A stretch of DNA of 64,000 bases from Candidatus Nanopelagicales bacterium. GTDB lineage: Bacteria > Actinomycetota > Actinomycetes > S36-B12 > UBA5976. Below the pieces are notes generated by a model. That model was not told the DNA's origin. It saw only the letters and a program-made list of their open reading frames with translations, and made no database searches. Of the stretch, positions 13,989 to 52,003 are shown piece by piece; positions within the stretch are counted from its first letter, which is position 1; each line of letters begins with the position of its first letter. The position numbers were made by a program, and so were the translations under genes. The DNA lies in contig JALQVI010000001.1 in the NCBI GenBank assembly GCA_023260395.1, positions 3,692 through 67,691 of the forward strand. The letters are read 5' to 3'.

Positions 13989-15071
13989 TTAGGAGATTGC
14001 TGCGACCGAGGCGCGAACCTTGGTCAGCAAGTCACCTGTGATTGGCACGTAGCCAGCACCTGAAAGCGCACCCTGAGCCTCATCTGATGATGTGTAGGTT
14101 AGGAATGACTTTACGAGTGCAGCCTGAGCTGCATCCAAGCCCTTTTCGCAAGTGATTTCGTAGGTCACAAGAACGATTGGGTATGAAGCGCCGTCAGCCA
14201 CGGTGCGGTCGATGTTAAGAGCAAGGTCATTGCCGGTGCCCTTAACGGTTGCTGCTGCGATGGTCTTTGCTGCTGCATCCGAAGTTGCTTCAACTGCGCC
14301 GCCGCCATTGTCGATCTTTGCAGCCTTGAGGTTCTGGGTTTGTACGAATGACAATTCCATGTAACCGATTGAGTTCTTGGTTGATGCAACTGATGAGGCA
14401 ACGCCGTCGGAACCCTTAGCTCCTTGTCCACCTGGAGCAACCCAATCCTTGCCACCTGCGAGGGTGTAAGTATCTGGAGTTGTAGCGATGAGCCACTTGG
14501 TGAAGTTGTCGGTGGTGCCTGATGAATCGCTGCGGTGGAATGAAGCGATTGTGGCAGCTGGCAAAGCTACGCCAGCGTTAAGTGCAGCAATTGCTGGATC
14601 GTTCCACTTGGTGATTTTGCCGGTGAAAATGCCAGCAGTTGTCTTTGGATCAAGCACGAGTGAATCAACGCCATCAATGTTGTAAGCAAGAGCAATTGCT
14701 CCGCCAACCATTGGGATGTCGATTGCATTGTTACCTGCACAGCGAGCTGCTGCGCCAGCAACTTCTTCTGGCTTCAGTGCTGAGTCAGAGCCAGCGAAGT
14801 CAGTCTGTGCGTTGATGAAGTCTTGTACGCCTGCGCCTGAACCATTTGCTTGGTAGTCGATGGTCGCGCCGGGATTAGCAGTCTGGAATGCGTTGACCCA
14901 TTCGGCCATTGCGTTCTTCTGTGCTGAAGAGCCTGATGCCTTCAGTGCACCTGTTACGCCACCAGCTGGAGCTGATGCCGAGCTGCTTGCATTGTTGTCG
15001 CTGCCACATGCAGTTAGCGACAGGGTGGTTGCGATTGCAACGGTTGCAATTGCGATTCGGGTGATTTTCAC
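13989..15071 (-). CDS. pstS: phosphate-binding lipoprotein
   Basis: 360 aa. Signal peptide with lipobox LSLTAC|GS. PstS/PBP motifs GSSAQ, GSGAG, SDS and RSDSSGTT. Confidence 0.93.
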   Translation of the reverse strand: MKITRIAIATVAIATTLSLTACGSDNNASSSASAPAGGVTGALKASGSSAQKNAMAEWVNAFQTANPGATIDYQANGSGAGVQDFINAQTDFAGSDSALKPEEVAGAAARCAGNNAIDIPMVGGAIALAYNIDGVDSLVLDPKTTAGIFTGKITKWNDPAIAALNAGVALPAATIASFHRSDSSGTTDNFTKWLIATTPDTYTLAGGKDWVAPGGQGAKGSDGVASSVASTKNSIGYMELSFVQTQNLKAAKIDNGGGAVEATSDAAAKTIAAATVKGTGNDLALNIDRTVADGASYPIVLVTYEITCEKGLDAAQAALVKSFLTYTSSDEAQGALSGAGYVPITGDLLTKVRASVAAIS

Positions 15072-18482: not shown

Positions 18483-19640
18483 ATGAGCAGGCAAATAGTT
18501 GTAATGGGTAGTGGCGAAACGAGCCCGACGATGGTCACCCCACACCAGCGGATTCTGGCGGATGTGCCTGCAACTGGCCGAATTGTGCTCGATACACCCT
18601 TTGGTTTCCAGGAGAATGCCGATGAGCTCACGACTCGGCTCGAGGATTATTTCGCCAATTCGGTGGGCACCAACACAACCGCAGTGTCTTTGCGAACGAC
18701 CGAACTTTCAGCTGGCGAAATTGCCTCAGCCGTCGCGAAAGTCCATTCGGCGAACTGGGTGTTTGCTGGACCGGGTTCCCCTTCATATGCATTGAAAGTT
18801 TGGCGCGAAACCGGAATTGCACCGCACTTTGATGAAGTGCTGCAGCGCGGCGTCATCGTGCTGGCTTCTGCCGCGGCGTTAACAGCCGGTGCCTACACAA
18901 TTCCGGTGTATGAAATTTACAAAGTCGGTCAAGATCCATTCTGGAATGAAGGCCTGAACTTACTTGGTCGTCACACTGGTTTGAATGCTGTGGTGATCCC
19001 GCACTTCGACAACAGTGAAGGTGGCACGCACGACACTCGTTTCTGTTACATGGGCGAGCGTCGATTGCGCATGCTCGAAGCGCAGTTGCCTGCTGATGTT
19101 TTCGTGCTCGGTGTTGATGAACACACAGGCGTAAGTTTTGATCTCGATACACACGTCGTTCGAGTCTTCGGTCGCGGTTCAATGACAGTGCGCAAGGGCG
19201 ACCATGTGTGGCAGGTCAAGAGTGGCGATGAAACCACAATCGAAGAAATCGCAAAGCAAGCCGATGTCGAACGCGTCATCACAGAAACAACAGAGCCGTT
19301 GTTCGTTGCGGCCGATCAAGTTGAAGAGTTACTAGAAACAGGCAATGTGTTGGCGGCTGTTGATGCGTTGCTTGAACTCGATGAAATGGATCGCGACATC
19401 GATACGCGCGCGACAGTTCACGCGCTCATCACACGGCTGGGCCAGCTCGCAGCATCACCTCGTGTTGACCTGCAATCAGTCGTAGGCCCATACATTGAGG
19501 CACTTTTACAGGCTCGTAACGCTGCTCGCTCTGGCGGTCGATGGGACGAAGCTGATGCCATTCGCGATCAACTCACGTCACTGCAAGTAACCATCAAAGA
19601 CACTGCTGATGGTTCCCAATGGGACATTCAAAGTTCCTGA
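18483..19640 (+). CDS. S51 (cyanophycinase/PepE)-like domain protein with a CysRS/MshC-like C-terminal helical tail
   Basis: 385 aa. N-terminus VVMGSGETSP, then LASAAALTAGAY at the nucleophile-elbow position, IPHFDN and VLGVDEHTGV. C-terminal part (LLETGNVLAAVDALLELDE...LLQARNAARSGGRWDEADAIRDQLTSLQVTIKDTADGSQW) resembles the C-terminus of cysteinyl-tRNA synthetase. No HIGH/KMSKS motifs. Confidence 0.55.
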   Translation: MSRQIVVMGSGETSPTMVTPHQRILADVPATGRIVLDTPFGFQENADELTTRLEDYFANSVGTNTTAVSLRTTELSAGEIASAVAKVHSANWVFAGPGSPSYALKVWRETGIAPHFDEVLQRGVIVLASAAALTAGAYTIPVYEIYKVGQDPFWNEGLNLLGRHTGLNAVVIPHFDNSEGGTHDTRFCYMGERRLRMLEAQLPADVFVLGVDEHTGVSFDLDTHVVRVFGRGSMTVRKGDHVWQVKSGDETTIEEIAKQADVERVITETTEPLFVAADQVEELLETGNVLAAVDALLELDEMDRDIDTRATVHALITRLGQLAASPRVDLQSVVGPYIEALLQARNAARSGGRWDEADAIRDQLTSLQVTIKDTADGSQWDIQSS

Positions 19641-19658: not shown

Positions 19659-20369
19659 ATGTCACATCAACCTGGTCCCATCGCACTTGTCGGTTCCGGC
19701 GAATACTTGCCGGTCATGCAAGAACTCGAAGCTGAACTCATTCGCGATCGCAATCCGATCTATGTTCAGCTGCCGACTGCAGCGGCGCCTGAAGGTGACG
19801 AGTCATTGCGTCGTTGGATTGAACTTGGCAAGAAGCAAGCAGAGCGCATTGGCGTCACTCAAGTTCCGGTTGTCGTTCGCGATAACAACGACGCAAACGA
19901 TCCACACTTCGCTGCTCTTGTCAACGATGCAGGCCTGATTTATTTATCGGGAGGTAACCCTCACTTTTTGGCGGACACATTGCGCGACTCGTTGGTGTGG
20001 AAGGCGATTCATGATGCGCGGCAGTCAGGAGCTGCGCTTGCTGGATGTTCGGCCGGTGCGATGGCGATTGCCGATCACATTCCAGCGCTTCGATTGCACT
20101 CGCCGCGAGAGTCACGGGGACTCGGTGTGCTACCTCATATAAGAGTCTTGCCACATTTCGACAAGATGTTTGGCTGGGTACCAGATTTAGCCTTGCGAAT
20201 GCTGGAAGTTCCCGATGGAGTCCACGTTGTTGGCATTGATGAAGAGACAGCGCTTGTCGGCGGCCCGTTTGAGTGGGAAGTTCGTGGCCGACAATCGGTA
20301 TGGATAGTACAAAACGGACATCGCCAGGAATTCACTTCCGGGTCAAAAATATTTCTTTCTGGAATTTAA
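19659..20369 (+). CDS. S51 peptidase-like (cyanophycinase/dipeptidase E family) protein
   Basis: 236 aa. Motifs LVGSGEYLP, YLSGGNPHFL, LAGCSAGAMA (GxSAG nucleophile motif), LPHFD and VVGIDEETALV. Confidence 0.65.
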   Translation: MSHQPGPIALVGSGEYLPVMQELEAELIRDRNPIYVQLPTAAAPEGDESLRRWIELGKKQAERIGVTQVPVVVRDNNDANDPHFAALVNDAGLIYLSGGNPHFLADTLRDSLVWKAIHDARQSGAALAGCSAGAMAIADHIPALRLHSPRESRGLGVLPHIRVLPHFDKMFGWVPDLALRMLEVPDGVHVVGIDEETALVGGPFEWEVRGRQSVWIVQNGHRQEFTSGSKIFLSGI

Positions 20370-20504
20370 GGGGCTACCCCCTCATTTTTGTCATCGCGAC
20401 AAAAATGGCGCGTTTATTGGTTCAAAGCATCACTTTTCATGAGGTTTACTAGTTAAGTCTGACTCGGGTCAGACCATTGTTTGGTTATCCAAAAGGAAAG
20501 TGTT

Positions 20505-23500
20505 GTGACGAAGTTGTCCACAAAGTTTGCCCATGTTTCAAAGCGTGCAGTTGCACTCGTTAGTTCCCTTGCGATCGCAGTAACTGGCCTGGTTGCCGGT
20601 GTTGCTGCTCCAGCAAGTGCGTCTGTCCCTGACGCGCGCCAGTTAACCGTTGGCAAGTCCTTCGGCACTACGCTCTCCAGCCCAGAGATGGCAATCTCTA
20701 ACGGTTTCGCGTATGTGCTTTCCAAGTACGGTTACAACTCGGATTATTCGGGCTACAAGCTGTACCGCAAGCCTGTGGCCGATATTAACTCGACCCCGAC
20801 AGTTATTTTGGATGCAACTAATGCGACTCTTTGCGGTGCCACTGGTTCTAACACCTTAGGCGCGACCATCAACGGCATTGATGATGTCGATCAGATGGCA
20901 GTTTCCGGCAATAATCTTTACCTACTCGAATGCTCTGGAAATGGAAGCAACATTCGTGTTGTGAAATTTGATATCTCAGACACGACTGCGACTTCCTTGA
21001 CCGGAACCGTTGTGGCTAACGCAACTTCACTTTCAGCGCGTCGCAACTCCCGTATCGCGGTTGACTCCAACCTGAACTTGTACAACATGTCGTCAAACAA
21101 CGTTTTCAAGATTGCAGTTAATGGCAGCGGCTACTACTCCGCCGCAACAACGACTCCATTGGCTTCGTTGCCAAGCTCTGCATCGATCTACAGCGGACAC
21201 ATGGATTCGCAGGGTTCGCTCGTGCTGATGTCGCAGGTGCAAGCTAGCCCTCAGACAATCGCTGCTACCTTCACATCGGTCAACACCTCAACTGGCGCGC
21301 TAACGACATTGAAGGATGTTCCAGGGACCTCCAGTTTGTACCCATACGACTTCAGTATTGATCCCGCAACGGACGATATCCTTTATATGGATACCCAGAC
21401 TGCGCCTTACCGCGTCCGTCGAATCGTCAAGGGCACTAACTCGGATTACGCCACAATCGTGGACGCGGTAAAGCCTGGTCTCAAGGTTGTACAAATCAGC
21501 CACGAGGCGATTGTTGCTGGCTCAAGTAACCAAGTAGTTTCAATTACAACCTCAGCTGATGCCCCGGTGGCACTAGGCGACACAGTTCAAAATACTTTGC
21601 CAACGGGCAGTTCGTTCTATTACACCGGTGTTGTAAGTGAAATTACCGACGCCCGAAATTTCAAAGTTAAATTAAACAATCCGCTTTACGGCTCGTTAGC
21701 GGCCGATAACACCGAGTCGCTTGCGATCTACAAAAAATTCAATAGCCTTCAAGCAATTGCCGTAAGCGCTGACGGCATTTTCACGTTGGACAATCATGCG
21801 AACATCGTGAGTGGAGCAACTACAAACCAGACGTTCTTTATGGGGACAGAAGCCGCATCTCCGTTGTTTACGATTCCAGCACAGTTCGTTACGATTCGTG
21901 CTTTCCATCGTGGCTTGACCGCAAGCTGGTCTGCGCCGGCAAACATTCCAGATTTAACGGGAATGGAAGCCCAAATTTGGGCCGGCGCTACTCAAGCTGA
22001 TGCGCTAACCGCAGCAGCAACCGGTACAAACCCAACAGTGACGTGTGTTCCGGACTCGATCACCTCTAGCCCATTCTCGTGTCCGATTTATTCGGGAGTT
22101 GAAGTAGGCAAGTTCTACGCCATCCGTGTGAAGTTGTCGACGGCAGCGACTAGCCAGCTGAGTGCAAACCCCGTAGCTCCTCCAGCTAACGCTCCTTCAA
22201 ACAATGCCAACGTGGTTCAAGCTGTCGACTCAGCAATGTCAGCCTCGCTCGCGAGCGATGCTCCGACGGGCACCGGCCCAGGTTACGCACACGTTGGCAC
22301 AAGCACAGGTTCTGCCATAACGCTCATTCGCAGTGCTGCTCCTCGCGAGTCCGCGAGCGATGGTGTGGGGGGTAAGTTTTTCGCCATCTCAACGGGAAAT
22401 AACAAACTTGCTGAGTACAAGTTGATTCACGTTAAGGGTGATGGATCAGTTGATTCAACTTTTGGTACCGCTGGCGTGCAGACAGTTGCCAATCAATTCT
22501 CAACTGGTACCCGCAACATCAAGCTAGGTTGGTACGGCGAATCAAAGTGGTTCATGCTCGATTCTTCGTACACAAATTCAGGTACAAATTATCGCTTGAC
22601 GTACCAAACCGGTGCTACAACGACGAATTCGTACACATTTACAGACGCTACGTTGCGCGCAAATTGCGCGTCGTCATTCACTCATGACAACACCACAAAT
22701 GGTCAGTGGATTAGCACTGTGACTACAGTTTCGGCAGCATCAAGTGCGCCGCTGCTCAATGTTCCATGTGGTGTGCAGTATCTGACTTCGCAGAGCGCGG
22801 CTCGACTCAGCAACTTACCGATTTTGGTGACAGTGACAGGGGATAACTCAACATCCGTGTTCTCAAAGCCAATCGGCGATCCAACAATGGCAGATGTCAT
22901 TGCGCCGAATAGCACGTATTGCTTGAACGCTGCGGGTGTTAACCCAGCCGACACCTCGGTGACATCGGGTGGAACATTGGTCACCTTGATGTACAACGGA
23001 TACACCGCTATCAATAACCAGGGTTGCATGAGTGCCAATAGCGCAGTTGGAATCGCATTCCAAATTGCAGCTGATGGAACACCAACTCGTGTTGTTACCG
23101 GTGCATCTTCGGCGTCGTACTCGGATGCGTTCGCTGCAGGTAACGGTGTCTTCTACCTAACTTCACAAAACAACATGGGCATGACTCCGACGATTACGGT
23201 TTCGCGTTTGTTAGCCAACGGAACAATTGATTCAACATTTGGCTCAGCTGGATCAATGAATGTCTCAGGTCCATCGTGTACAGGTTCACCTACCCAGATT
23301 TGGGGACTTGTTAATGGTTCACAGAGTCGTAAATACCTTGCGTTCCTATCGATTAAGTCGACGCCTTACAGCCCACAAAATCCAAATCCAAGTACATCGG
23401 CAATTCCTGCTGCGATGCTGGTTGATGCCGGACAGTCGACCGATCGTGTTGGCTCATCATTGATGGGTGTTGGCGCGTCGCTTGCGAAATACTCCAGCTC

Positions 23501-26249
23501 GGTGTTCGGTTTTGGCGCCTCAGGTGGTGGATCGGTATTCGCAACTTCAGGAATGGATTCCAGCACTGGGGCTATGTCGTTTGCGTTCTTCAAGAACGAC
23601 TCAGATGGCCTAGGTCGCATCACGTGGGATTCTTTCGCAACTGCGTTGCCAGCCGGTGACGATGCAATTGAATGTCCAGCTCTACCGTTTGTGGCTTCCA
23701 CAAACTCAATGTCTGGAAGTTACTCACGCGGATTCCGCACAGTGAAACTAACGAACGGCAAGTTCTTCCTGTTCGGCAATAGTGGAATGTCGCAATCGTC
23801 TGCTAACAAGTCAGAAATTCTTGACCTTGGAAGTAACCCAGTGGATGGAACATTCTCGTGGACATCCGCCATCCCAACTACGGGTGGATTGAACGGACTT
23901 CCGAGTGGTGCGTCACTTGCTGCACTTGCCGATAACAAGGTGCTTATTGCAGGTGGTTCGTACTACGACGCCGTCGTCACCCATACGTCAGCTAACCAGC
24001 TGGTCGCAGCAGTTTATGACGCAGTTACAAACACCTACACAGCAACCGGCGCGCTGACCAAGGCACGTTGTAATGCCAATACACAGTCTCTGTCCAATGG
24101 CAAGGTCTTGATTTTCGGTGGCGACAATTGCAACACGGGCTTGACGGTGACTTACACTGACGCAGAAATTTATGACCCAACAGCAGGAACGTTTACTGCT
24201 GTAACAGGTGATCTAGGTGCCTCATTTAGCAACATCGTGGCTCTGGGTGGTGGCAAGCACATGATTCTTGGTACGCCACTTCCTAGCGGCTTTGGTAGCG
24301 GTCAAGTTACAGGCAGCTCAGTGACAAAGATCTACGATGAGGTAACTAACTCCTTCTCGGATGGTCCAGCACTAACATCTGCTCGTGTTGCTCCTGTTGT
24401 TGTTGCACTTCCCGCCGGCAAGGTTTTCGTTGCGGGCGGTTTGCAAATGGGACCGGGATCTCCAAACTCGGCTCCATCCACGATGACTGGCGAAATCTAT
24501 ACTCCTGGTACAGGTGGCGCGATTGGAACGTTTACTGCAGTTGCAGCTACCGCACCATCATCAATCGTTGGTGCCTCGGGCGTTATCTTGCCTAGCGGTA
24601 AGGTCATGATTCTGCTCGGTAGCAGCAACATGATGTACGGCCAGGCATCCACACAAAGCATCAAATTCAATCCTGCGAACAACTCATGGGCTGCAGGCGA
24701 TGAACGTGGAACTGCAACTGCTGGTGCGATTCCATTTGCAGTCGGTACAAAGATCGTGATGCTTGGTGAGACAACTAATATGTCTCCAACTGTGCAGACA
24801 CACTTCACCGTCTACACCGAACCAGCTGAAGCACAGGCTGCAATCACGAGCACTGCACCTCGCGTTGTGAAGGGCACGACAGGCTTGACCGGCAAGGTAA
24901 CTTACACAGTTCCTACCGCGTTAAATCCTGTTGCGGGCAAGACCCAGGTTGTCTTTTCGAACGCATCTGGATCAAATGCCCTGACCACAACCGTTACATG
25001 GAACACAGCGAGCAAGGTTGTTCTATCGAACAACAACTTGTCCGTCACGGTTTCATTGCCAACAGCTGCGCAAGCTGCAAATGCTGGTGCAGTGACTGTG
25101 ACTATCAAGTCGGGTGCAACTGGCACTGACGTCATCGGAACAACAACGTTGACCTACTTGGCCACCGCCGATGTTCCAACAATTACGAGCCAAGCTGCAA
25201 CCGCCTTGAACGGCCATGCGAATGCCGCAGTTACTTCGGTGCCGCTAGCAGCAACTTCGCTACTCAGCCCGAATCAGCCAGGCTCAGGTCTGACTTACAC
25301 ATCGGCAACAGCTGCTGTATGTACTGTGAATGCAACTGGTGTTGTCACTCGCGTCTCGCGAGGCATCTGCACAATCAATGTCAAGCAGCCAAAGGGTGAA
25401 GGCAGTTCTGAAAAGACTCAAGCATTCACCTGGGAGTTTGATAAGTCAGCTCAAACGATTACGTATGCAGATGCAAATCCAACAACGTTGCCATTGACTG
25501 AAGACGGCACAACATTGGCTGCGACGGCATCATCAGGACTTGCTCTCGATTTCGAAGCAACCACAGATGACATCTGTGCCGTTGATGATGCAGGTGTTCT
25601 CACAACACTTGCGCTGGGAACCTGCACAATCACGGTTGACCAGGCTGGCGATGGAACGTATCTCGCAGCACCGCAGGTAACCAAGACAATCACAATCGCT
25701 AACCCGGTGACCCCACCCGTTGACGTACCGAACGCCCCAATTGGCGACGGTGTGTTTGGTGATACACCGGCAGGTGACACGATGGCCTCGGTGGTTTCAA
25801 CCCAGCGTTTCACGGTTGCAAAGAACATCAACTTTGGTCGCGGTTTCAAGGTTCAATACACGCCAACTGTTAAGTCAGGCAACGTTACAACCTTGACGCT
25901 TAACCCAACGATTACGTCCAACTACATGGGCCCAATCACAACGGTGTTCTCGATTCCAAAGGCTGCGTCAAAGACAACTCCAACGGGTTGGACCTTGCCA
26001 AAGAACGGTACGGCTTACACCTGCACTGTTACTTATGGTGTGACCAAGAAACTAGCTAACAACGCTCGTGCCAAGACGGTGGTGTACAAGCCTGCAAAGC
26101 CTTGTACTCTCGCAATCTCGCCGAAGGTTCCAGCTGGCACTGTAGTCACAGTGAAGAACTCATGGGATCGTCGTAATGCGAAGACTTACTTAGCTATCGC
26201 AGGCGGCATCCAAAAGCGCACAGCAACAATTACGTTGAGTGCAAACTAA
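20505..26249 (+). CDS. giant secreted multi-domain protein (propeller-like, FN3-like, delta-60-like repeats, Kelch repeats, IPT/TIG-like and Big_2-like Ig domains)
   Basis: GTG at 20505 lies 5-8 nt after AAAGGAAAG; the ORF track starts at TTG 20481. The signal peptide ends in AAPASA|SV. Kelch-like strands include NKVLIAGGS, GKVLIFGGD, GKVFVAGG and GKVMILLGS. Ig-like modules include CTVNATGVVTRVSRGICTINV and GVLTTLALGTCTITVDQAGDGTY. No LPXTG motif and no C-terminal TM segment. Confidence 0.8.
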   Translation: MTKLSTKFAHVSKRAVALVSSLAIAVTGLVAGVAAPASASVPDARQLTVGKSFGTTLSSPEMAISNGFAYVLSKYGYNSDYSGYKLYRKPVADINSTPTVILDATNATLCGATGSNTLGATINGIDDVDQMAVSGNNLYLLECSGNGSNIRVVKFDISDTTATSLTGTVVANATSLSARRNSRIAVDSNLNLYNMSSNNVFKIAVNGSGYYSAATTTPLASLPSSASIYSGHMDSQGSLVLMSQVQASPQTIAATFTSVNTSTGALTTLKDVPGTSSLYPYDFSIDPATDDILYMDTQTAPYRVRRIVKGTNSDYATIVDAVKPGLKVVQISHEAIVAGSSNQVVSITTSADAPVALGDTVQNTLPTGSSFYYTGVVSEITDARNFKVKLNNPLYGSLAADNTESLAIYKKFNSLQAIAVSADGIFTLDNHANIVSGATTNQTFFMGTEAASPLFTIPAQFVTIRAFHRGLTASWSAPANIPDLTGMEAQIWAGATQADALTAAATGTNPTVTCVPDSITSSPFSCPIYSGVEVGKFYAIRVKLSTAATSQLSANPVAPPANAPSNNANVVQAVDSAMSASLASDAPTGTGPGYAHVGTSTGSAITLIRSAAPRESASDGVGGKFFAISTGNNKLAEYKLIHVKGDGSVDSTFGTAGVQTVANQFSTGTRNIKLGWYGESKWFMLDSSYTNSGTNYRLTYQTGATTTNSYTFTDATLRANCASSFTHDNTTNGQWISTVTTVSAASSAPLLNVPCGVQYLTSQSAARLSNLPILVTVTGDNSTSVFSKPIGDPTMADVIAPNSTYCLNAAGVNPADTSVTSGGTLVTLMYNGYTAINNQGCMSANSAVGIAFQIAADGTPTRVVTGASSASYSDAFAAGNGVFYLTSQNNMGMTPTITVSRLLANGTIDSTFGSAGSMNVSGPSCTGSPTQIWGLVNGSQSRKYLAFLSIKSTPYSPQNPNPSTSAIPAAMLVDAGQSTDRVGSSLMGVGASLAKYSSSVFGFGASGGGSVFATSGMDSSTGAMSFAFFKNDSDGLGRITWDSFATALPAGDDAIECPALPFVASTNSMSGSYSRGFRTVKLTNGKFFLFGNSGMSQSSANKSEILDLGSNPVDGTFSWTSAIPTTGGLNGLPSGASLAALADNKVLIAGGSYYDAVVTHTSANQLVAAVYDAVTNTYTATGALTKARCNANTQSLSNGKVLIFGGDNCNTGLTVTYTDAEIYDPTAGTFTAVTGDLGASFSNIVALGGGKHMILGTPLPSGFGSGQVTGSSVTKIYDEVTNSFSDGPALTSARVAPVVVALPAGKVFVAGGLQMGPGSPNSAPSTMTGEIYTPGTGGAIGTFTAVAATAPSSIVGASGVILPSGKVMILLGSSNMMYGQASTQSIKFNPANNSWAAGDERGTATAGAIPFAVGTKIVMLGETTNMSPTVQTHFTVYTEPAEAQAAITSTAPRVVKGTTGLTGKVTYTVPTALNPVAGKTQVVFSNASGSNALTTTVTWNTASKVVLSNNNLSVTVSLPTAAQAANAGAVTVTIKSGATGTDVIGTTTLTYLATADVPTITSQAATALNGHANAAVTSVPLAATSLLSPNQPGSGLTYTSATAAVCTVNATGVVTRVSRGICTINVKQPKGEGSSEKTQAFTWEFDKSAQTITYADANPTTLPLTEDGTTLAATASSGLALDFEATTDDICAVDDAGVLTTLALGTCTITVDQAGDGTYLAAPQVTKTITIANPVTPPVDVPNAPIGDGVFGDTPAGDTMASVVSTQRFTVAKNINFGRGFKVQYTPTVKSGNVTTLTLNPTITSNYMGPITTVFSIPKAASKTTPTGWTLPKNGTAYTCTVTYGVTKKLANNARAKTVVYKPAKPCTLAISPKVPAGTVVTVKNSWDRRNAKTYLAIAGGIQKRTATITLSAN

Positions 26250-26261
26250 GTACTAACAAAT

Positions 26262-26294
26262 AAGTCAGGGTCACCTTCGGGTGGCCCTGACTTA
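26262..26294. terminator. strong hairpin terminator after the giant gene (probably also serves convergent mshD)
   Basis: AAGTCAGGGTCACC-TTCG-GGTGGCCCTGACTT, a 14-bp stem with one G-U pair and a TTCG tetraloop. T-rich sequence follows on both strands (TATTTG / TATTTGTT). Confidence 0.8.
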
Positions 26295-26393
26295 TTTGCT
26301 GTGAAAACTATTTTTGTGAAGCAGCAGGGTTATCGCTTCAAACGACATGGACGTATTTCTATCGTGTTGTGTTACTACGAAACAACGTTGTAA

Positions 26394-27314
26394 TTAAGCG
26401 CGAGTAAACATGACGTCGGTGTCCCAATGCATGAAACCGATTGATTCGTATAAGTGTTTTGCCGAATCATTGTCGGCATCGACGTAAAGCATCGCAGCGC
26501 CTAAGCCTTCGTCGCGCAAGTATTCCAAACCTTTTAGGCTTAGGGCCTTGGATAAGCCTGTACCACGTTCGGATGGCGCAACGCCTAGAACATAGATTTC
26601 GCCGATTTCAGGATGATCATGTCCACCGCCACGACGTCCACCGTGAATCTTGGTCCAGTGGAATCCAACGAGCTTGTCGCCCTTGCACGCAAGTAAGAAT
26701 CCGGATGGATCAAACCAGCCCTCGGACATGCGCACATCTAAATCGTTACGAGAGAGCTGACCTTGTTCAGGATGTTCCGCAAACACTTCAGCGTTGAGAG
26801 CAAGCCAGGCTTCTTCATCTTGGCCAGGAACAAAACTTCGAATTGTGATTCCCGTAGGCACGTCGTATTTCGGCATCGCAGAAAAAAGTGAGCGGCGCAT
26901 TTGCCACAGTTCGCGCGTCTTTTTGAACCCTAAGTTGGAAGCCAATGCGTAAGCCATTGCAAGTTCGCCGTGTGCCCACAGGCGCAAGCGATCATCGCCT
27001 GCGCGTTCCGTCGCAGCATGAACCAGAGCGCGACCAACTCCCATGCGACGGTGGCGAGGATGAACAACGAGTTCAACAACGGGACCAGCAACTTCGTCCG
27101 TTTGATCCAGATGCAAATAACCAATCACGATGCCATCGGTAGAGCGAGCGACAATGTGTTCGTCATGTTCATCGCCACCGTGATTTAGATGAATCAATAC
27201 GTGTTCAGACAGTGGAGCAAGGTCATCTTGAACTGTTGCAGACTGGATTAATTCTTTGATGCGCGCGATGTCATTATCGTCAAGATGCGCAAGCGCCGAA
27301 ACGGTAAAGGACAT
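26394..27314 (-). CDS. mshD: mycothiol synthase (tandem GNAT domains)
   Basis: 306 aa with two GNAT folds. Conserved stretches VVHPRHRRMGVGRAL, RLWAHGELAMAYALASNLGF, RELWQMRRSL and YVLGVAPSERGTGLSKAL. Confidence 0.88.
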   Translation of the reverse strand: MSFTVSALAHLDDNDIARIKELIQSATVQDDLAPLSEHVLIHLNHGGDEHDEHIVARSTDGIVIGYLHLDQTDEVAGPVVELVVHPRHRRMGVGRALVHAATERAGDDRLRLWAHGELAMAYALASNLGFKKTRELWQMRRSLFSAMPKYDVPTGITIRSFVPGQDEEAWLALNAEVFAEHPEQGQLSRNDLDVRMSEGWFDPSGFLLACKGDKLVGFHWTKIHGGRRGGGHDHPEIGEIYVLGVAPSERGTGLSKALSLKGLEYLRDEGLGAAMLYVDADNDSAKHLYESIGFMHWDTDVMFTRA

Positions 27315-30347: not shown

Positions 30348-31196
30348 ATGAGCCGCAACGAAGTACTCGTTGACTCGGAATGGGCATTAGCTCACCTCGA
30401 TGACCCAAAGGTCGTTTTCGTTGAAGTTGACGAAGATGCAGATGCCTATAGCGTCAACCACATTCGTGGTGCAGTTGGTCTGAACTGGCGCGTTGATTTG
30501 CAGGACGGCCTTCGCCGCGACGTCATCAGCAAGGCTGGTCTTGAAAAGCTTCTTTCCGAAAAGGGCATCAGCAACGATGACACCATCGTTCTATACGGTG
30601 GCAACAACAACTGGTTTGCTGCATATGCCTATTGGTACCTCAAGCTTTACGGTCACCAGGATGTTCGTTTGCTCGATGGTGGTCGCAAGAAGTGGGAACT
30701 CGATGGACTAGAACTAGTCAGCGATGCAACCGTTCGTCCAGCAACAACATATGTTGCCAAGGAACAAGATCGTTCACTTCGCGCATTCCGCGATGACGTC
30801 GTTAACGCCATTGGTGTACAGAACCTCGTTGACGTTCGCTCCCCAGATGAGTACGCCGGCCGCCTATTGGCACCAGCACACTTGCCACAGGAAACTTCAC
30901 AGGTTCCGGGCCACATCCCAACCGCAGCGAGCATCCCATGGAGCAAGGCTGCTAACGAAGATGGCACCTTCAAGTCTGACGAAGAACTCAAGGCACTTTA
31001 CGAAGGCGCTGGCGTTGACCTGAACAAGGACACCATTGCGTACTGCCGTATCGGTGAGCGTTCATCACACTCATGGTTCGTCCTTCGCGAACTCTTGGGC
31101 ATCAAGAACGTACGCAACTACGACGGTTCATGGACCGAATATGGTTCATTGATCGGTGTTCCAGTTGCTCTCGGTGATGAGCCAGGCACAGCATGA
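30348..31196 (+). CDS. sseA: thiosulfate/3-mercaptopyruvate sulfurtransferase (two rhodanese domains)
   Basis: 282 aa. Active-site loop is YCRIGERSSHSWFVL, and NYDGSWTEYG lies near the C-terminus. Equivalent to mycobacterial CysA2/SseA. Confidence 0.88.
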   Translation: MSRNEVLVDSEWALAHLDDPKVVFVEVDEDADAYSVNHIRGAVGLNWRVDLQDGLRRDVISKAGLEKLLSEKGISNDDTIVLYGGNNNWFAAYAYWYLKLYGHQDVRLLDGGRKKWELDGLELVSDATVRPATTYVAKEQDRSLRAFRDDVVNAIGVQNLVDVRSPDEYAGRLLAPAHLPQETSQVPGHIPTAASIPWSKAANEDGTFKSDEELKALYEGAGVDLNKDTIAYCRIGERSSHSWFVLRELLGIKNVRNYDGSWTEYGSLIGVPVALGDEPGTA

Positions 31197-31663: not shown

Positions 31664-32689
<1,026 letters not shown>

Positions 32690-50629: not shown

Positions 50630-52003
50630 GTGCGCGATTTTTCATCAATCTTCCGAAACATTGTGGGACCGCGCACATTTACCTGGCAGGGTGCGCTGGC
50701 TTTCACACTCATTGCAACTGTCGGTTCCATCGTTCTTTATGGCAATCAAGCCGATGCACATTTGAATTTGTATCTAATGATTTTTCTCATTGCTCAGGTC
50801 TGTGCACTTTTCGTCTATGTAATTTCTGGAATGATTTTTTCTCGCATTGCGCCTTTTAATGGCCGAGTTGTTTTCGTCATTATCAGTTACGTAGTTCTGT
50901 GTTTCGTGCGCGCGTATGTGGCCGAGAAGCTTTTATGGCGTACTCAGGAAATTTCACAGGATTTGTTAGTGTGGCGGTTTCGTTCAAACCTCATTGTGAA
51001 TTTACCGGTATTTGCTGGAACCGCTTGGGTGATGAACACCCGTGAAGAATCGAAAACTCGACTCCGCAAACTCCGTGCTGATGGTGATGAACTTTCCAAA
51101 GAACTTGAACAACTTTCAATGGTGTATTCCGAGCAACGTTCATATGGCGAACGTGAATTGGCACTTGAAGTTTCTAGTGCCAGGCAATTGCTCGATGCAC
51201 TACTGAACAATAAAGATGTGATGTCGAAATATGAGTCACTCGTCGCGCAATTACAAGCCTCGGTACATCATGCGAGTCAAGCCATTAAAGCAATGCCTCA
51301 AGGTGAAATTGCGCAACGCTATTCGATTCCACCTATTCCGACTCCGTTTTCTATGGTGGTAATCCTCGATCGCATTACGCGTGTGCGTGGCATTTCCCCT
51401 TGGACTGCAAGCGCGACAGCGTTCTTCTTCTCATTTGCCTATGCGCAGTACCACGAGTCAAGCAGCCCGCCCTTCATCTCCACATTGGGCATGGCTGCTG
51501 TCATGTTGATGATCTTGTATTTCAATCGCCGCGTCATTATTCCAAGAATTCGTCATTGGGAATTATGGGCTCGAATTGTTGTTTTTGAAATTGTCGCGAC
51601 CACTGTCAATGTTTGGCTTTCACTTTTTATTACACGTTTTATTTTGAAAGCACCCTTGCCGCTAGGAATTACGATTACTGCTGCGTTAACGAGTTGGCTC
51701 ATTATGAACGTAGTTGTTTTTATGCAGGGTGTGTTTGATCAGCGTGCTGACTATTGCCAGTTACTTGCTGCTCGCAACGAGCACATTGCACAGGCGATTA
51801 ACGAAACTCGACAGATGATGTCGCTTGAAGAATCCACCTGGAAGCAAATGTTTGTTGGTGACATTGGACGAACTCCAACAGCTGCCAACGTGATGTTAAA
51901 GAACATTAGTGATGGCGTTCACGTTCGTGATGTTCAAGAACAGCTCGCAGTTATCAACGACATATGGCGCCTCGTTTTGGCACAGTTACGTATCGTCACC
52001 TAA
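50630..52003 (+). CDS. unknown polytopic membrane protein with a central coiled coil (A+T-rich gene)
   Basis: 457 aa; the GTG start is uncertain. About 4-5 TM segments, then a charged coiled coil ([19 protein letters not shown]), about 5 more TM segments, and a roughly 90-aa soluble tail. Hand counts of two 100-nt samples gave 33 and 37 G+C, against 53 in neighbouring menF. Confidence 0.6.

Follow-up and report, generated by a model that had tools for sequence, protein, structure and literature searches.

The window, that is the whole stretch of 64,000 nucleotides analysed, stems from a freshwater actinobacterium and contains a giant gene on the forward strand (20505..26249) of 1,914 codons, with a GTG start and a TAA stop. 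In the list of open reading frames, the frame runs uninterrupted from 20481 to 26249, and the in-frame GTG at 20505 is preceded by AAGGAAAG, the ribosome-binding site at 20493-20500. The product comprises 1,914 aa and is 100% identical to a database copy (P0001) of equal length and start. Covering 5,745 of the 64,000 bases, the gene accounts for 9.0% of the window, in agreement with the share of about 9% given in a preliminary description of this DNA. The same description took the gene to be real and intact, with about 1914 codons, which is borne out by the ribosome-binding site, the full-length frame, purifying selection and the existence of orthologues; the motifs it quoted are all present where it placed them. 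Rfam and tRNA scans of the window returned no match.

The left neighbour is a gene for an S51 (cyanophycinase-like) peptidase (19659..20369, forward strand; Pfam Peptidase_S51, E = 5.7e-15), which shows 65–87% identity across 17 relatives and adjoins mshD in 15 of them. On the right, and convergent with the giant gene, lies mshD itself, encoding mycothiol synthase (26394..27314, reverse strand), whose earlier identification is upheld by synteny and by a TIGR03448 score of 337 bits against a cutoff of 163. A direct neighbourhood with ppk had also been proposed and proved mistaken, as ppk is found two genes further left, beyond the S51 peptidase gene. The ORF between ppk and the S51 peptidase gene is not mshC.

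In composition, the giant gene resembles the remainder of the window (GC 0.512, GC3 0.498, Nc 48), so the host-like character noticed initially extends to all three measures, and a reading of the gene as foreign DNA is ruled out by its composition and codon usage. Its codon bias is ordinary when compared with PstS, a rhodanese-domain protein and fructose-bisphosphate aldolase from the same window (Nc 35–37), which argues against very high expression. Comparison with the orthologue from locus L085, which is 85% identical, gives a dN/dS of 0.115 overall and of 0.07–0.18 in each 150-codon window, with values of 0.03–0.04 for the flanking genes. The gene is under purifying selection along its entire length, and the suggestion that it might be hypervariable, or contain a hypervariable region, is contradicted by the low ratio in every one of these windows.

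The gene is enclosed by elements which together form an expression frame. Just past the stop codon of the S51 peptidase gene, a terminator scan identified a short G+C hairpin followed by a T-run (20369..20382, forward strand), which is kept in L005, L007, L085, L086 and L003, while a comparable GGGG-TA-CCCC hairpin is also located 5' of the Rhodoluna-type copy. This hairpin is likely to be either the terminator of the S51 peptidase gene or the left edge of the insert. The 5' part of the frame (20410..20504, forward strand) consists of a promoter-like region, a 7-bp stem and the above mentioned ribosome-binding site, and is common to two unrelated cargo genes at the same position in L005 and L007, with 77–93% identity to these against a background of 40–55% within the cargo. 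Shuffled sequences match the stability of the stem (20457-20474; z = -0.5), and the 5' hairpins claimed at first are accordingly weak and not significant. The strong terminator claimed alongside them is real: the 3' part of the frame (26257..26297, forward strand), again common to the L005 and L007 cargo genes, is a bidirectional intrinsic terminator with a 19-bp stem of -33.8 kcal/mol (z = -7.2 against shuffles).

The interval between the S51 peptidase gene and mshD behaves as a slot, empty in 15 of the 17 relatives with a gap of only 0–36 bp, which substantiates the view of the gene as an insertion in a housekeeping block. Only three filled variants were seen. Besides the giant gene, these are the genes for a 696-aa exported protein in L005 and a 753-aa exported protein in L007, both unrelated to the giant protein but sharing with its gene the promoter region, start region, signal peptide and terminator. 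Across cargo types the frame keeps its 77–93% identity, whereas the cargo bodies stand at background level. The start region is 90–100% conserved, synonymous positions included, and the signal peptide is better kept than the mature N terminus. Among 167 loci compared, the frame motifs, including the terminator core, are present solely at slot loci. With conserved flanks, content that is non-homologous or absent, and homology only at the borders, the locus is a replacement islet. Given unrelated cargo in a shared frame, the conservation pattern suggests that cargo is probably swapped by homologous recombination within that frame. Synonymous divergence is lower in the giant gene (pS 0.469) than in four flanking genes (0.615; bootstrap interval of the difference 0.09–0.20), which fits a more recent exchange of the cassette.

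As a DNA pattern, the start region gave 0 matches to metagenome contigs, and the lineage seems to be missing from that collection.

The encoded protein belongs to a family of ca. 1,900 aa whose members align collinearly over their whole length even at 27% identity. What had been described as a mosaic is therefore one old family, and not a recent shuffle. All members derive from actinobacterial or unclassified metagenome records, and the family amounts to 5 clusters among 1.84 billion representative proteins, a rarity so extreme that these bacteria cannot carry it as a rule. Orthologues of 85% and 75% identity occupy the same slot. A relative of 41% identity, the cluster of which includes the Rhodoluna sp. 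protein WP_296647555.1, follows a tRNA-Ser(GCU) gene in a different context, and another of 28% identity is placed in a third context on a 928-kb contig, in favour of mobility. No neighbouring gene is common to all three contexts, and no ligand or partner is indicated.

A gene inserted at a site that most relatives keep empty, with one family member next to a tRNA gene, could be regarded as a relic or mobile-element gene without host function, for instance a phage gene of the tail or fibre-like type, or an insertion in decay. Phage fibres often contain beta-rich proteins with Ig domains, and the giant protein is of this nature. Such an origin is nevertheless hardly credible in view of the purifying selection over the full length, the host-like composition and an architecture maintained down to 27% identity. 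Furthermore, neither an integrase nor a phage gene lies beside the gene in any of the three contexts, and a scan of viral contigs produced a single short match confined to Kelch sequence; on these two grounds a prophage origin was rejected.

The protein begins with a Sec-type signal peptide (aa 1–39; 20505..20621, forward strand), which forms part of the conserved frame. It has a K/K/R n-region, a hydrophobic core and A-S-A|S-V at aa 37–41, the site named in the preliminary description, and cleavage is predicted at ASA|SV. With 55–60% identity to the leaders of the cargo proteins in L005 and L007, it is the sole part that these two share with the giant protein. A profile built from the signal peptide only scored nothing against a set of 5.8 billion proteins, because the query is too short and biased in composition. 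The statement that the protein has no recognisable anchor also holds: in 7 family members there is neither an LPXTG-type motif near the C terminus nor a hydrophobic segment outside the signal peptide, and Pfam and NCBIfam gave no match to an SLH or similar S-layer anchor or to another known wall-binding domain.

The C-terminal orphan domain (aa 1764–1914, 151 residues; 25794..26246, forward strand) is a candidate for non-covalent attachment to the wall. It has a pI of 10.6, with 21 K+R and 1 D+E, compared to an overall acidic to neutral remainder of the protein, and contains one conserved Cys pair. It is also the best-conserved module of the family, at 42–55% identity in distant members, in which the N-terminal region falls to 21–31%, the lowest in the family. 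The cargo proteins of L005 and L007 likewise carry basic tails of 150 residues (pI 9.6 and 10.0, respectively). The domain matches no known family in Pfam, wall-binding families included, and its profile finds no match in the PDB at E <= 10. A joint profile of the N-terminal and C-terminal parts recovered, among 8,000 candidates scored, only the four known orthologues, which implies that the C-terminal domain is not seen in other proteins. Basic charge and conservation together suggest a non-covalent wall attachment, and a wall-binding role read from these two properties is a guess.

The modules that lie between the two ends differ in how clearly they can be assigned. The N-terminal orphan region (aa 40–467; 20622..21905, forward strand) is all-beta, possibly propeller-like, and the least conserved part of the protein; it has no Pfam match and no PDB sequence match. 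Its structure model has a pLDDT of ca. 40 and yields weak Foldseek matches to generic propellers (GH43 and prolyl-oligopeptidase; TM ca. 0.15–0.2). The propeller that had been read here is a weak assignment, drawn from this model and from matches with a TM of ca. 0.2. The following stretch (aa 468–566; 21906..22202, forward strand) does contain the motifs LTASWSAP ... FYAIRVKL, on which an FN3-like module had been based, but neither Pfam (PF00041, aa 465–575) at E <= 10 nor PDB sequences provide a match. Within the middle region (aa 571–1010; 22215..23534, forward strand), D/NG[ST][VI]DSTFG motifs at aa 646 and 905 mark two units resembling delta-60 or DUF5122 (aa 608–668, 22326-22508; aa 874–926, 23124-23282; both forward strand). 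An HMM built from the family detects exactly two such units, 266 residues apart and without a consecutive array. The likeness noticed at the outset is retained to this extent, although both curated cutoffs are missed (TIGR02608 25.4 bits vs 76.5; DUF5122 17.5 vs 27, E = 0.005).

The clearest assignment is a seven-blade Kelch beta-propeller (aa 1076–1432; 23730..24800, forward strand), identified by Pfam, PDB profile, Foldseek and blade motifs. Four Kelch models exceed their cutoffs, namely Kelch_6 (44.9 bits, cutoff 25.3, 3 stretches), Kelch_2 (31.3, cutoff 21.3), Kelch_4 (26.5, cutoff 21.6) and Kelch_1 (21.0, cutoff 20.1), and seven blade motifs of the form G-K-hydrophobic-G-G extend over aa 1085–1415, confirming the initial count of about seven blades. 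The family profile matches the propellers of GlxA and galactose oxidase in the PDB (5lqi, 4unm) with E = 5e-10 over aa 1140–1390. Foldseek retrieves AA5 oxidases and Kelch domains with E = 1e-13, but at an rmsd of ca. 17 Å and from a model with a pLDDT of ca. 49. The copper site of these oxidases comprises an axial Tyr and His dyad, a second His and a Tyr-Cys cross-link. In the giant protein, Ile-Val stands opposite the Tyr-His dyad of GlxA, and no family member has conserved the dyad. The invariant columns of aa 1100–1440 include no His or Cys, and the sole Tyr (Y1171) lies well away from the residues opposite the dyad. With the copper ligands missing, the Kelch domain as a copper oxidase is ruled out.

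The propeller is followed by a beta-rich region (aa 1441–1592; 24825..25280, forward strand) with a pI of 9.6, which had been considered TIG-like. Foldseek alignments run beyond the propeller into the Ig-like domain of galactose oxidase and GlxA at the same rmsd of ca. 17 Å; the Ig-like fold and the TIG assignment are tentative, with no Pfam match (IPT/TIG, PF01833, aa 1436–1595) at E <= 10 and no PDB sequence match. Two bacterial Ig-like domains (Big-like, PF22359; aa 1593–1763; 25281..25793, forward strand) are, on the other hand, well established, with two stretches and a score of 34.3 bits (cutoff 27), so the pair of Big-type modules described beforehand was correct, with Big_2 itself reaching only 16.2 against 22.8. 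The Big-like pair is also found in many unrelated giant secreted proteins. Overall, ca. 60% of the giant protein is without a fold assignment; neither ca. 1,000 residues at the N terminus nor the C-terminal domain of 151 residues could be placed in a known family. An all-against-all comparison of eight modules by hhalign detected no internal homology (all probabilities < 5%). AlphaFold models of the two halves, from an alignment of 4 sequences, are poor (mean pLDDT 40 and 49), and fold matches are meaningful for the Kelch part alone.

A protein with a signal peptide, no recognisable anchor and a Kelch propeller closest to secreted copper radical oxidases may be freely released rather than wall-bound, for example as a glycan-binding scavenger or a polymer-acting enzyme. 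The low-confidence N-terminal model, weakly similar to GH43 and prolyl-oligopeptidase propellers, points in the same direction. This reading is unlikely, as the family has not kept the copper ligands, searches at every threshold failed to match a glycoside hydrolase or any other catalytic family, and the N-terminal fold matches have the low TM and pLDDT given above. In addition, the loss of a 195-kDa protein to open water would be costly for a very small genome, and the basic, conserved C-terminal domain would be left without explanation.

A further explanation is that the giant protein is the subunit of an S-layer-like surface coat, with a new basic wall-binding domain, and that the slot is a dedicated expression site for alternative, interchangeable coat proteins. 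Such a coat would account for the S-layer reported in freshwater planktonic Actinobacteria and for their reported size-independent resistance to grazing; PMC7669872 and PMC12817590 cite S-layers and grazing resistance of planktonic Actinobacteria with reference to Tarao et al. 2009. The slot, where start region and signal peptide are conserved, the cargo changes and the terminator is very strong, resembles S-layer gene variation in other bacteria. The protein fits in being large and all-beta, rich in T/S/A/G and low in Glu and Arg, with a basic tail and no covalent anchor, and one family member clusters with a Rhodoluna sp. protein. S-layer proteins usually contain few Cys, however, and the giant protein has 18, several of them invariant. 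It also lacks SLH or any other known S-layer anchor, its codon bias is not that of a highly expressed gene, 15 of the 17 relatives have an empty slot and public data contain extremely few members of the family. These features render an S-layer-like subunit in a dedicated coat site quite improbable; if it were true, the site would represent a genetic basis for the reported S-layer-dependent grazing resistance and for phage evasion. Literature searches that combined Rhodoluna with S-layer, or Nanopelagicales with Kelch, found nothing useful.

The preferred reading, to which we assign a probability of roughly 0.55, is that of a large, exported, all-beta protein, most likely a cell-surface binding or coat protein, encoded in a small replacement islet. 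The protein would be exported by Sec and cut by signal peptidase I after ASA at aa 39, leaving a mature protein of ca. 195 kDa. The basic C-terminal domain may then hold it non-covalently on the anionic wall, with three or four Ig-like modules, two of them confirmed, serving as a putative stalk. The non-catalytic seven-blade Kelch propeller and ca. 1,000 orphan, beta-rich residues would face outwards and might serve to bind glycans, particles or other ligands, or to protect the cell. Through swapping of cargo, cell surfaces would come to differ between strains, a type of variation commonly ascribed to pressure from phages and grazers.

In lakes, freshwater planktonic Actinobacteria rank with the most abundant bacteria, yet hardly any of their surface proteins have been characterised, and the literature ties their success to cell-surface microdiversity and to resistance against grazers and phages. 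The family described here is rare, strictly collinear over ca. 1,900 residues and exported, with an orphan basic C-terminal domain that may be a wall-binding module. The one-gene replacement site has a shared frame, which makes cargo variants easy to find in metagenomes. Genome-editing tools have been published for Rhodoluna, the genus of one relative (PMC11577799). Knock-out, grazing and phage-adsorption tests look feasible for that relative if a carrier strain grows. Should the protein be merely one more strain-specific adhesin, it would be of local interest only.

The one-gene surface-protein slot is of interest for strain-level surface variation and is not a new kind of system; several known systems share part of its features. 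The AA5 oxidases (GlxA of Streptomyces lividans and galactose oxidase; 4unm, 5lqi, 1gof) are likewise secreted, are of actinobacterial or fungal origin, and consist of a seven-blade Kelch propeller, as here, followed by a beta-sandwich, which the giant protein may share; they provide the best profile and fold matches for aa 1105–1440. Unlike these enzymes, the giant family has no invariant metal ligand, identity is only 13–18% and no more than a fifth of the giant protein is propeller. Giant Kelch/Big/FN3 secreted or adhesin-like proteins (partial matches P0005-P0022) are also large, possess signal peptides and share the Kelch part (aa ca. 1010–1410) and the Big-like pair (aa 1593–1763) at 30–55% identity. 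They share nothing else, the first 1,000 residues and the C-terminal domain being confined to the collinear ca. 1,900-aa family.

With regard to the arrangement of the locus, S-layer variants of Campylobacter fetus and variable surface protein genes of Mycoplasma combine a conserved 5' end with a variable body, and the slot likewise joins a conserved upstream region and signal peptide to unrelated exported bodies. It differs from these in that variation occurs between genomes, no single genome showing signs of silent copies, inversion or phase switching, and in that the conserved part is without an anchor domain. Replacement islands for cell-surface features are described in Nanopelagicales (PMC12817590), as is a “giant gene region” replacement island in Polynucleobacter (PMC5644125). 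GI1 of Planktophila (PMC12817590) and the Polynucleobacter asymbioticus region (PMC5644125) likewise have a fixed position, conserved housekeeping flanks, non-homologous or no content in relatives and very large exported cargo, together with homology confined to the borders, as expected for homologous recombination. In contrast to those islands, the slot is a single-gene islet, in another lineage and with another protein family, and its borders are the gene's own promoter region, start region, signal peptide and terminator instead of neighbouring genes.

The giant gene lies in a single open frame spanning 20481–26249 of the window in the ORF listing, in which an in-frame GTG start at 20505, preceded by AAGGAAAG, gives a product of 1,914 residues (20505–26249, + strand). 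A protein of the same length and sequence (P0001) is present in NCBI, ENA and Logan assemblies, and every motif quoted in the preliminary description was located at its given position; the observation as a whole is confirmed. The N terminus bears the hallmarks of a classical Sec signal peptide, from which export is predicted: a K/K/R n-region, then a hydrophobic core, then A-S-A followed by S-V at residues 37–41. The composition is host-like, as previously proposed, with GC (0.512), GC3 (0.498) and Nc (48) all matching the rest of the window. The strong 3′ terminator is likewise borne out (19-bp stem, −33.8 kcal/mol, z = −7.2 against shuffles); of the proposed 5′ hairpins, the stem at 20457–20474 is not more stable than shuffled sequence.

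Full-length orthologues, P0002 (85% identity) and P0003 (75%), occupy the same genomic position on other metagenome contigs. Comparison with the 85% orthologue gives an overall dN/dS of 0.115, with every 150-codon window falling at 0.07–0.18; purifying selection therefore acts over the whole length of what is a real gene, and no hypervariable segment exists. For the S51 peptidase gene and mshD on either side, the corresponding dN/dS values are 0.03–0.04, and the protein-level evolution of the giant gene is about twice as fast as that of its neighbours.

The position in question, here termed the slot, is the junction between the S51 peptidase gene (19659–20369) and mshD (26394–27314, − strand). 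Among related genomes retrieved via mshD, the nearest are freshwater actinobacterial metagenome-assembled genomes, followed by Candidatus Nanopelagicales at ca. 63% identity. All relatives retrieved keep the gene order ppk, 385-aa gene, S51 peptidase, mshD, GlnR-like regulator, thioredoxin, and in 15 of the 17 that cover the junction the S51 peptidase gene lies 0–36 bp from mshD or overlaps it, in keeping with the proposed insertion into a housekeeping block. The 385-aa gene of this order (18483–19640, + strand), located between ppk and the peptidase, is not mshC. It is an odd fusion adjoining a second S51-type gene, with a weakly cyanophycinase-like N-terminal part and a C-terminal CysS-type anticodon-binding domain, and is 59–92% identical in every relative whose contig extends that far. 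Elsewhere in the window, a 983-aa fusion (44527–47478, − strand) combines three domains, an APH-type phosphotransferase, Peptidase_M23 and a class-III aminotransferase.

The giant gene fills the slot in the window and in two related loci, L085 and L086. Two further loci, L005 (mshD 85% identical) and L007 (mshD 68% identical), carry secreted proteins of 696 and 753 residues there, respectively, neither with family matches and neither genuinely similar, past the first 40 residues, to the other or to the giant protein. T/S/A/G residues are abundant in each of the three cargo proteins, and each terminates in a basic tail. The content of the slot differs between genomes within a common frame, composed of upstream region, start region, signal peptide and terminator. 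The first three of these share 77–93% DNA identity between cargo types, with a maximum at the ribosome-binding site and initial codons; identity drops to background exactly where the signal peptide ends and resumes ca. 10 nt past the stop codon. Among 167 loci compared, the frame motifs are confined to these slot loci. A 457-aa ORF at 50630–52003 (+ strand), with hydrophobic segments, the lowest GC of the window (0.454) and no Pfam match, may represent a further flexible gene.

At 20490–20549, the ribosome-binding site plus ca. 15 initial codons match the 85% orthologue (L085) at 100% identity and the unrelated cargo genes of L005 and L007 at 90–93%, exceeding the conservation of the flanking housekeeping genes, which suggests that the mRNA start region itself is under selection. 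Between window 20505–26249 and L085 1424–7156 the giant gene has a synonymous divergence (pS) of 0.469, significantly below the 0.615 of four flanking genes (bootstrap interval of the difference, 0.09–0.20). Translational selection does operate in the small genome and is usable as a proxy for expression, since PstS (13989–15071, − strand), a rhodanese-domain protein (30348–31196, + strand) and fructose-bisphosphate aldolase (31664–32689, + strand) have Nc values of 35–37, a codon bias clearly stronger than in the rest of the window. Because the codon bias of the giant gene is ordinary, its lower pS fits a more recent cassette exchange better than selection on codons, neither being proven; a recent exchange between lineages is possible.

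The protein had been described as a mosaic; it is instead a member of a new, uncharacterised and rare family, collinear from end to end. Partial matches from a large protein search cover only the Kelch region (aa ca. 1010–1410) and the Big-like pair, and an exhaustive HMMER search with residues 38–1015 against 1.84 billion representative proteins returned five clusters only, all of 1,750–1,940 residues and aligning end to end at 27–38% identity. One includes Rhodoluna sp. WP_296647555.1, another MEY4349257.1 from an Actinomycetota metagenome-assembled genome. In distant members identity is highest in the C-terminal domain (42–55%) and Big pair (38–58%) and lowest in the N-terminal 440 residues (21–31%). 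The Rhodoluna-type copy (41% identity) retains a related start region and lies directly downstream of tRNA-Ser(GCU) (L003 9695–9786, L087 36–127), with unrelated genes on both sides; such a tRNA gene is a typical island insertion point. A 1,944-aa member (28% identity; L089 9533–15367, on a 928-kb metagenome contig) has a third, unrelated housekeeping context, between an endonuclease/exonuclease/phosphatase-family gene and a phosphoribosyltransferase gene. No neighbour is common to the three contexts, therefore a dedicated partner is not evident.

A segment-by-segment Pfam scan supports the Kelch module (aa 1076–1432), with Kelch_6 (44.9 bits, cutoff 25.3), Kelch_2 (31.3, 21.3), Kelch_4 (26.5, 21.6) and Kelch_1 (21.0, 20.1), and the two Big-type Ig modules (aa 1593–1763; Big-like PF22359, 34.3, cutoff 27, two stretches). 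The N-terminal region (aa 40–467) has no significant match, and the FN3 and TIG calls are unconfirmed: aa 468–566 have no match at E ≤ 10, and aa 1441–1592 no meaningful one (best E ca. 0.06) and none to TIG/IPT. For the delta-60 claim, a family-built HMM finds exactly two delta-60-like units (aa 608–668 and 874–926); in the middle region (aa 571–1010) DUF5122 (17.5 bits, cutoff 27) and TIGR02608 (25.4, cutoff 76.5) remain below cutoff. No internal homology was detected between the eight modules, and the predicted secondary structure is nearly all beta. AlphaFold models of both halves, built from four sequences, are poor (mean pLDDT 40 and 49); Foldseek again matches the C-terminal half (model mean pLDDT <50) to AA5 oxidases and Kelch domains, and gives the N-terminal half only weak generic propeller matches (TM ca. 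0.15–0.2). PDB matches to the seven-member family profile are Kelch propellers only, led by Streptomyces GlxA (5lqi, 4unm; E = 5e-10) and galactose-oxidase-like enzymes. The Tyr-His copper dyad of GlxA aligns with Ile-Val in the giant protein and no metal ligand is invariant across the family, therefore the propeller is most likely non-catalytic.

As previously noted for the giant protein, an LPXTG-type motif, a hydrophobic C-terminal segment and known wall-binding domains are absent from every family member examined. The C-terminal 151 residues have a pI of 10.6 (21 K+R, 1 D+E) versus 6.5 for the whole mature protein, and carry the invariant motifs GRG, P-GW, VKN-W-R and Q-RT with one conserved Cys pair. 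Big_8 is not significant in this region (aa 1764–1914; 15.8 bits, cutoff 22.9), no relatives were found in the PDB, and a joint N- and C-terminal profile search with 8,000 scored candidates did not find the domain in other proteins. Its conservation and charge make this domain the leading candidate for a non-covalent link to anionic wall polymers.

The best-supported reading is that of an exported surface protein that varies between strains and is encoded in a replacement islet of a single gene; the earlier interpretation is supported in part. The protein would attach to the wall via its basic C-terminal domain and may have an outward-facing binding or shielding role, with cargo exchanged through recombination within the frame and phage or grazer pressure as the putative driver. 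It is tempting to regard it as an S-layer-like coat protein, and an S-layer linked to grazing resistance is reported for planktonic Actinobacteria (PMC7669872 and PMC12817590, both referring to Tarao et al. 2009); the coat reading is weakened by the ordinary codon bias, the slot being empty in most relatives and the great rarity of the family. Compared with known systems, the surface-protein islet resembles the replacement islands for surface features described in Nanopelagicales (PMC12817590) and the “giant gene region” of Polynucleobacter (PMC5644125), and amounts to a small, tidy variation on a known locus type rather than a new kind of system.
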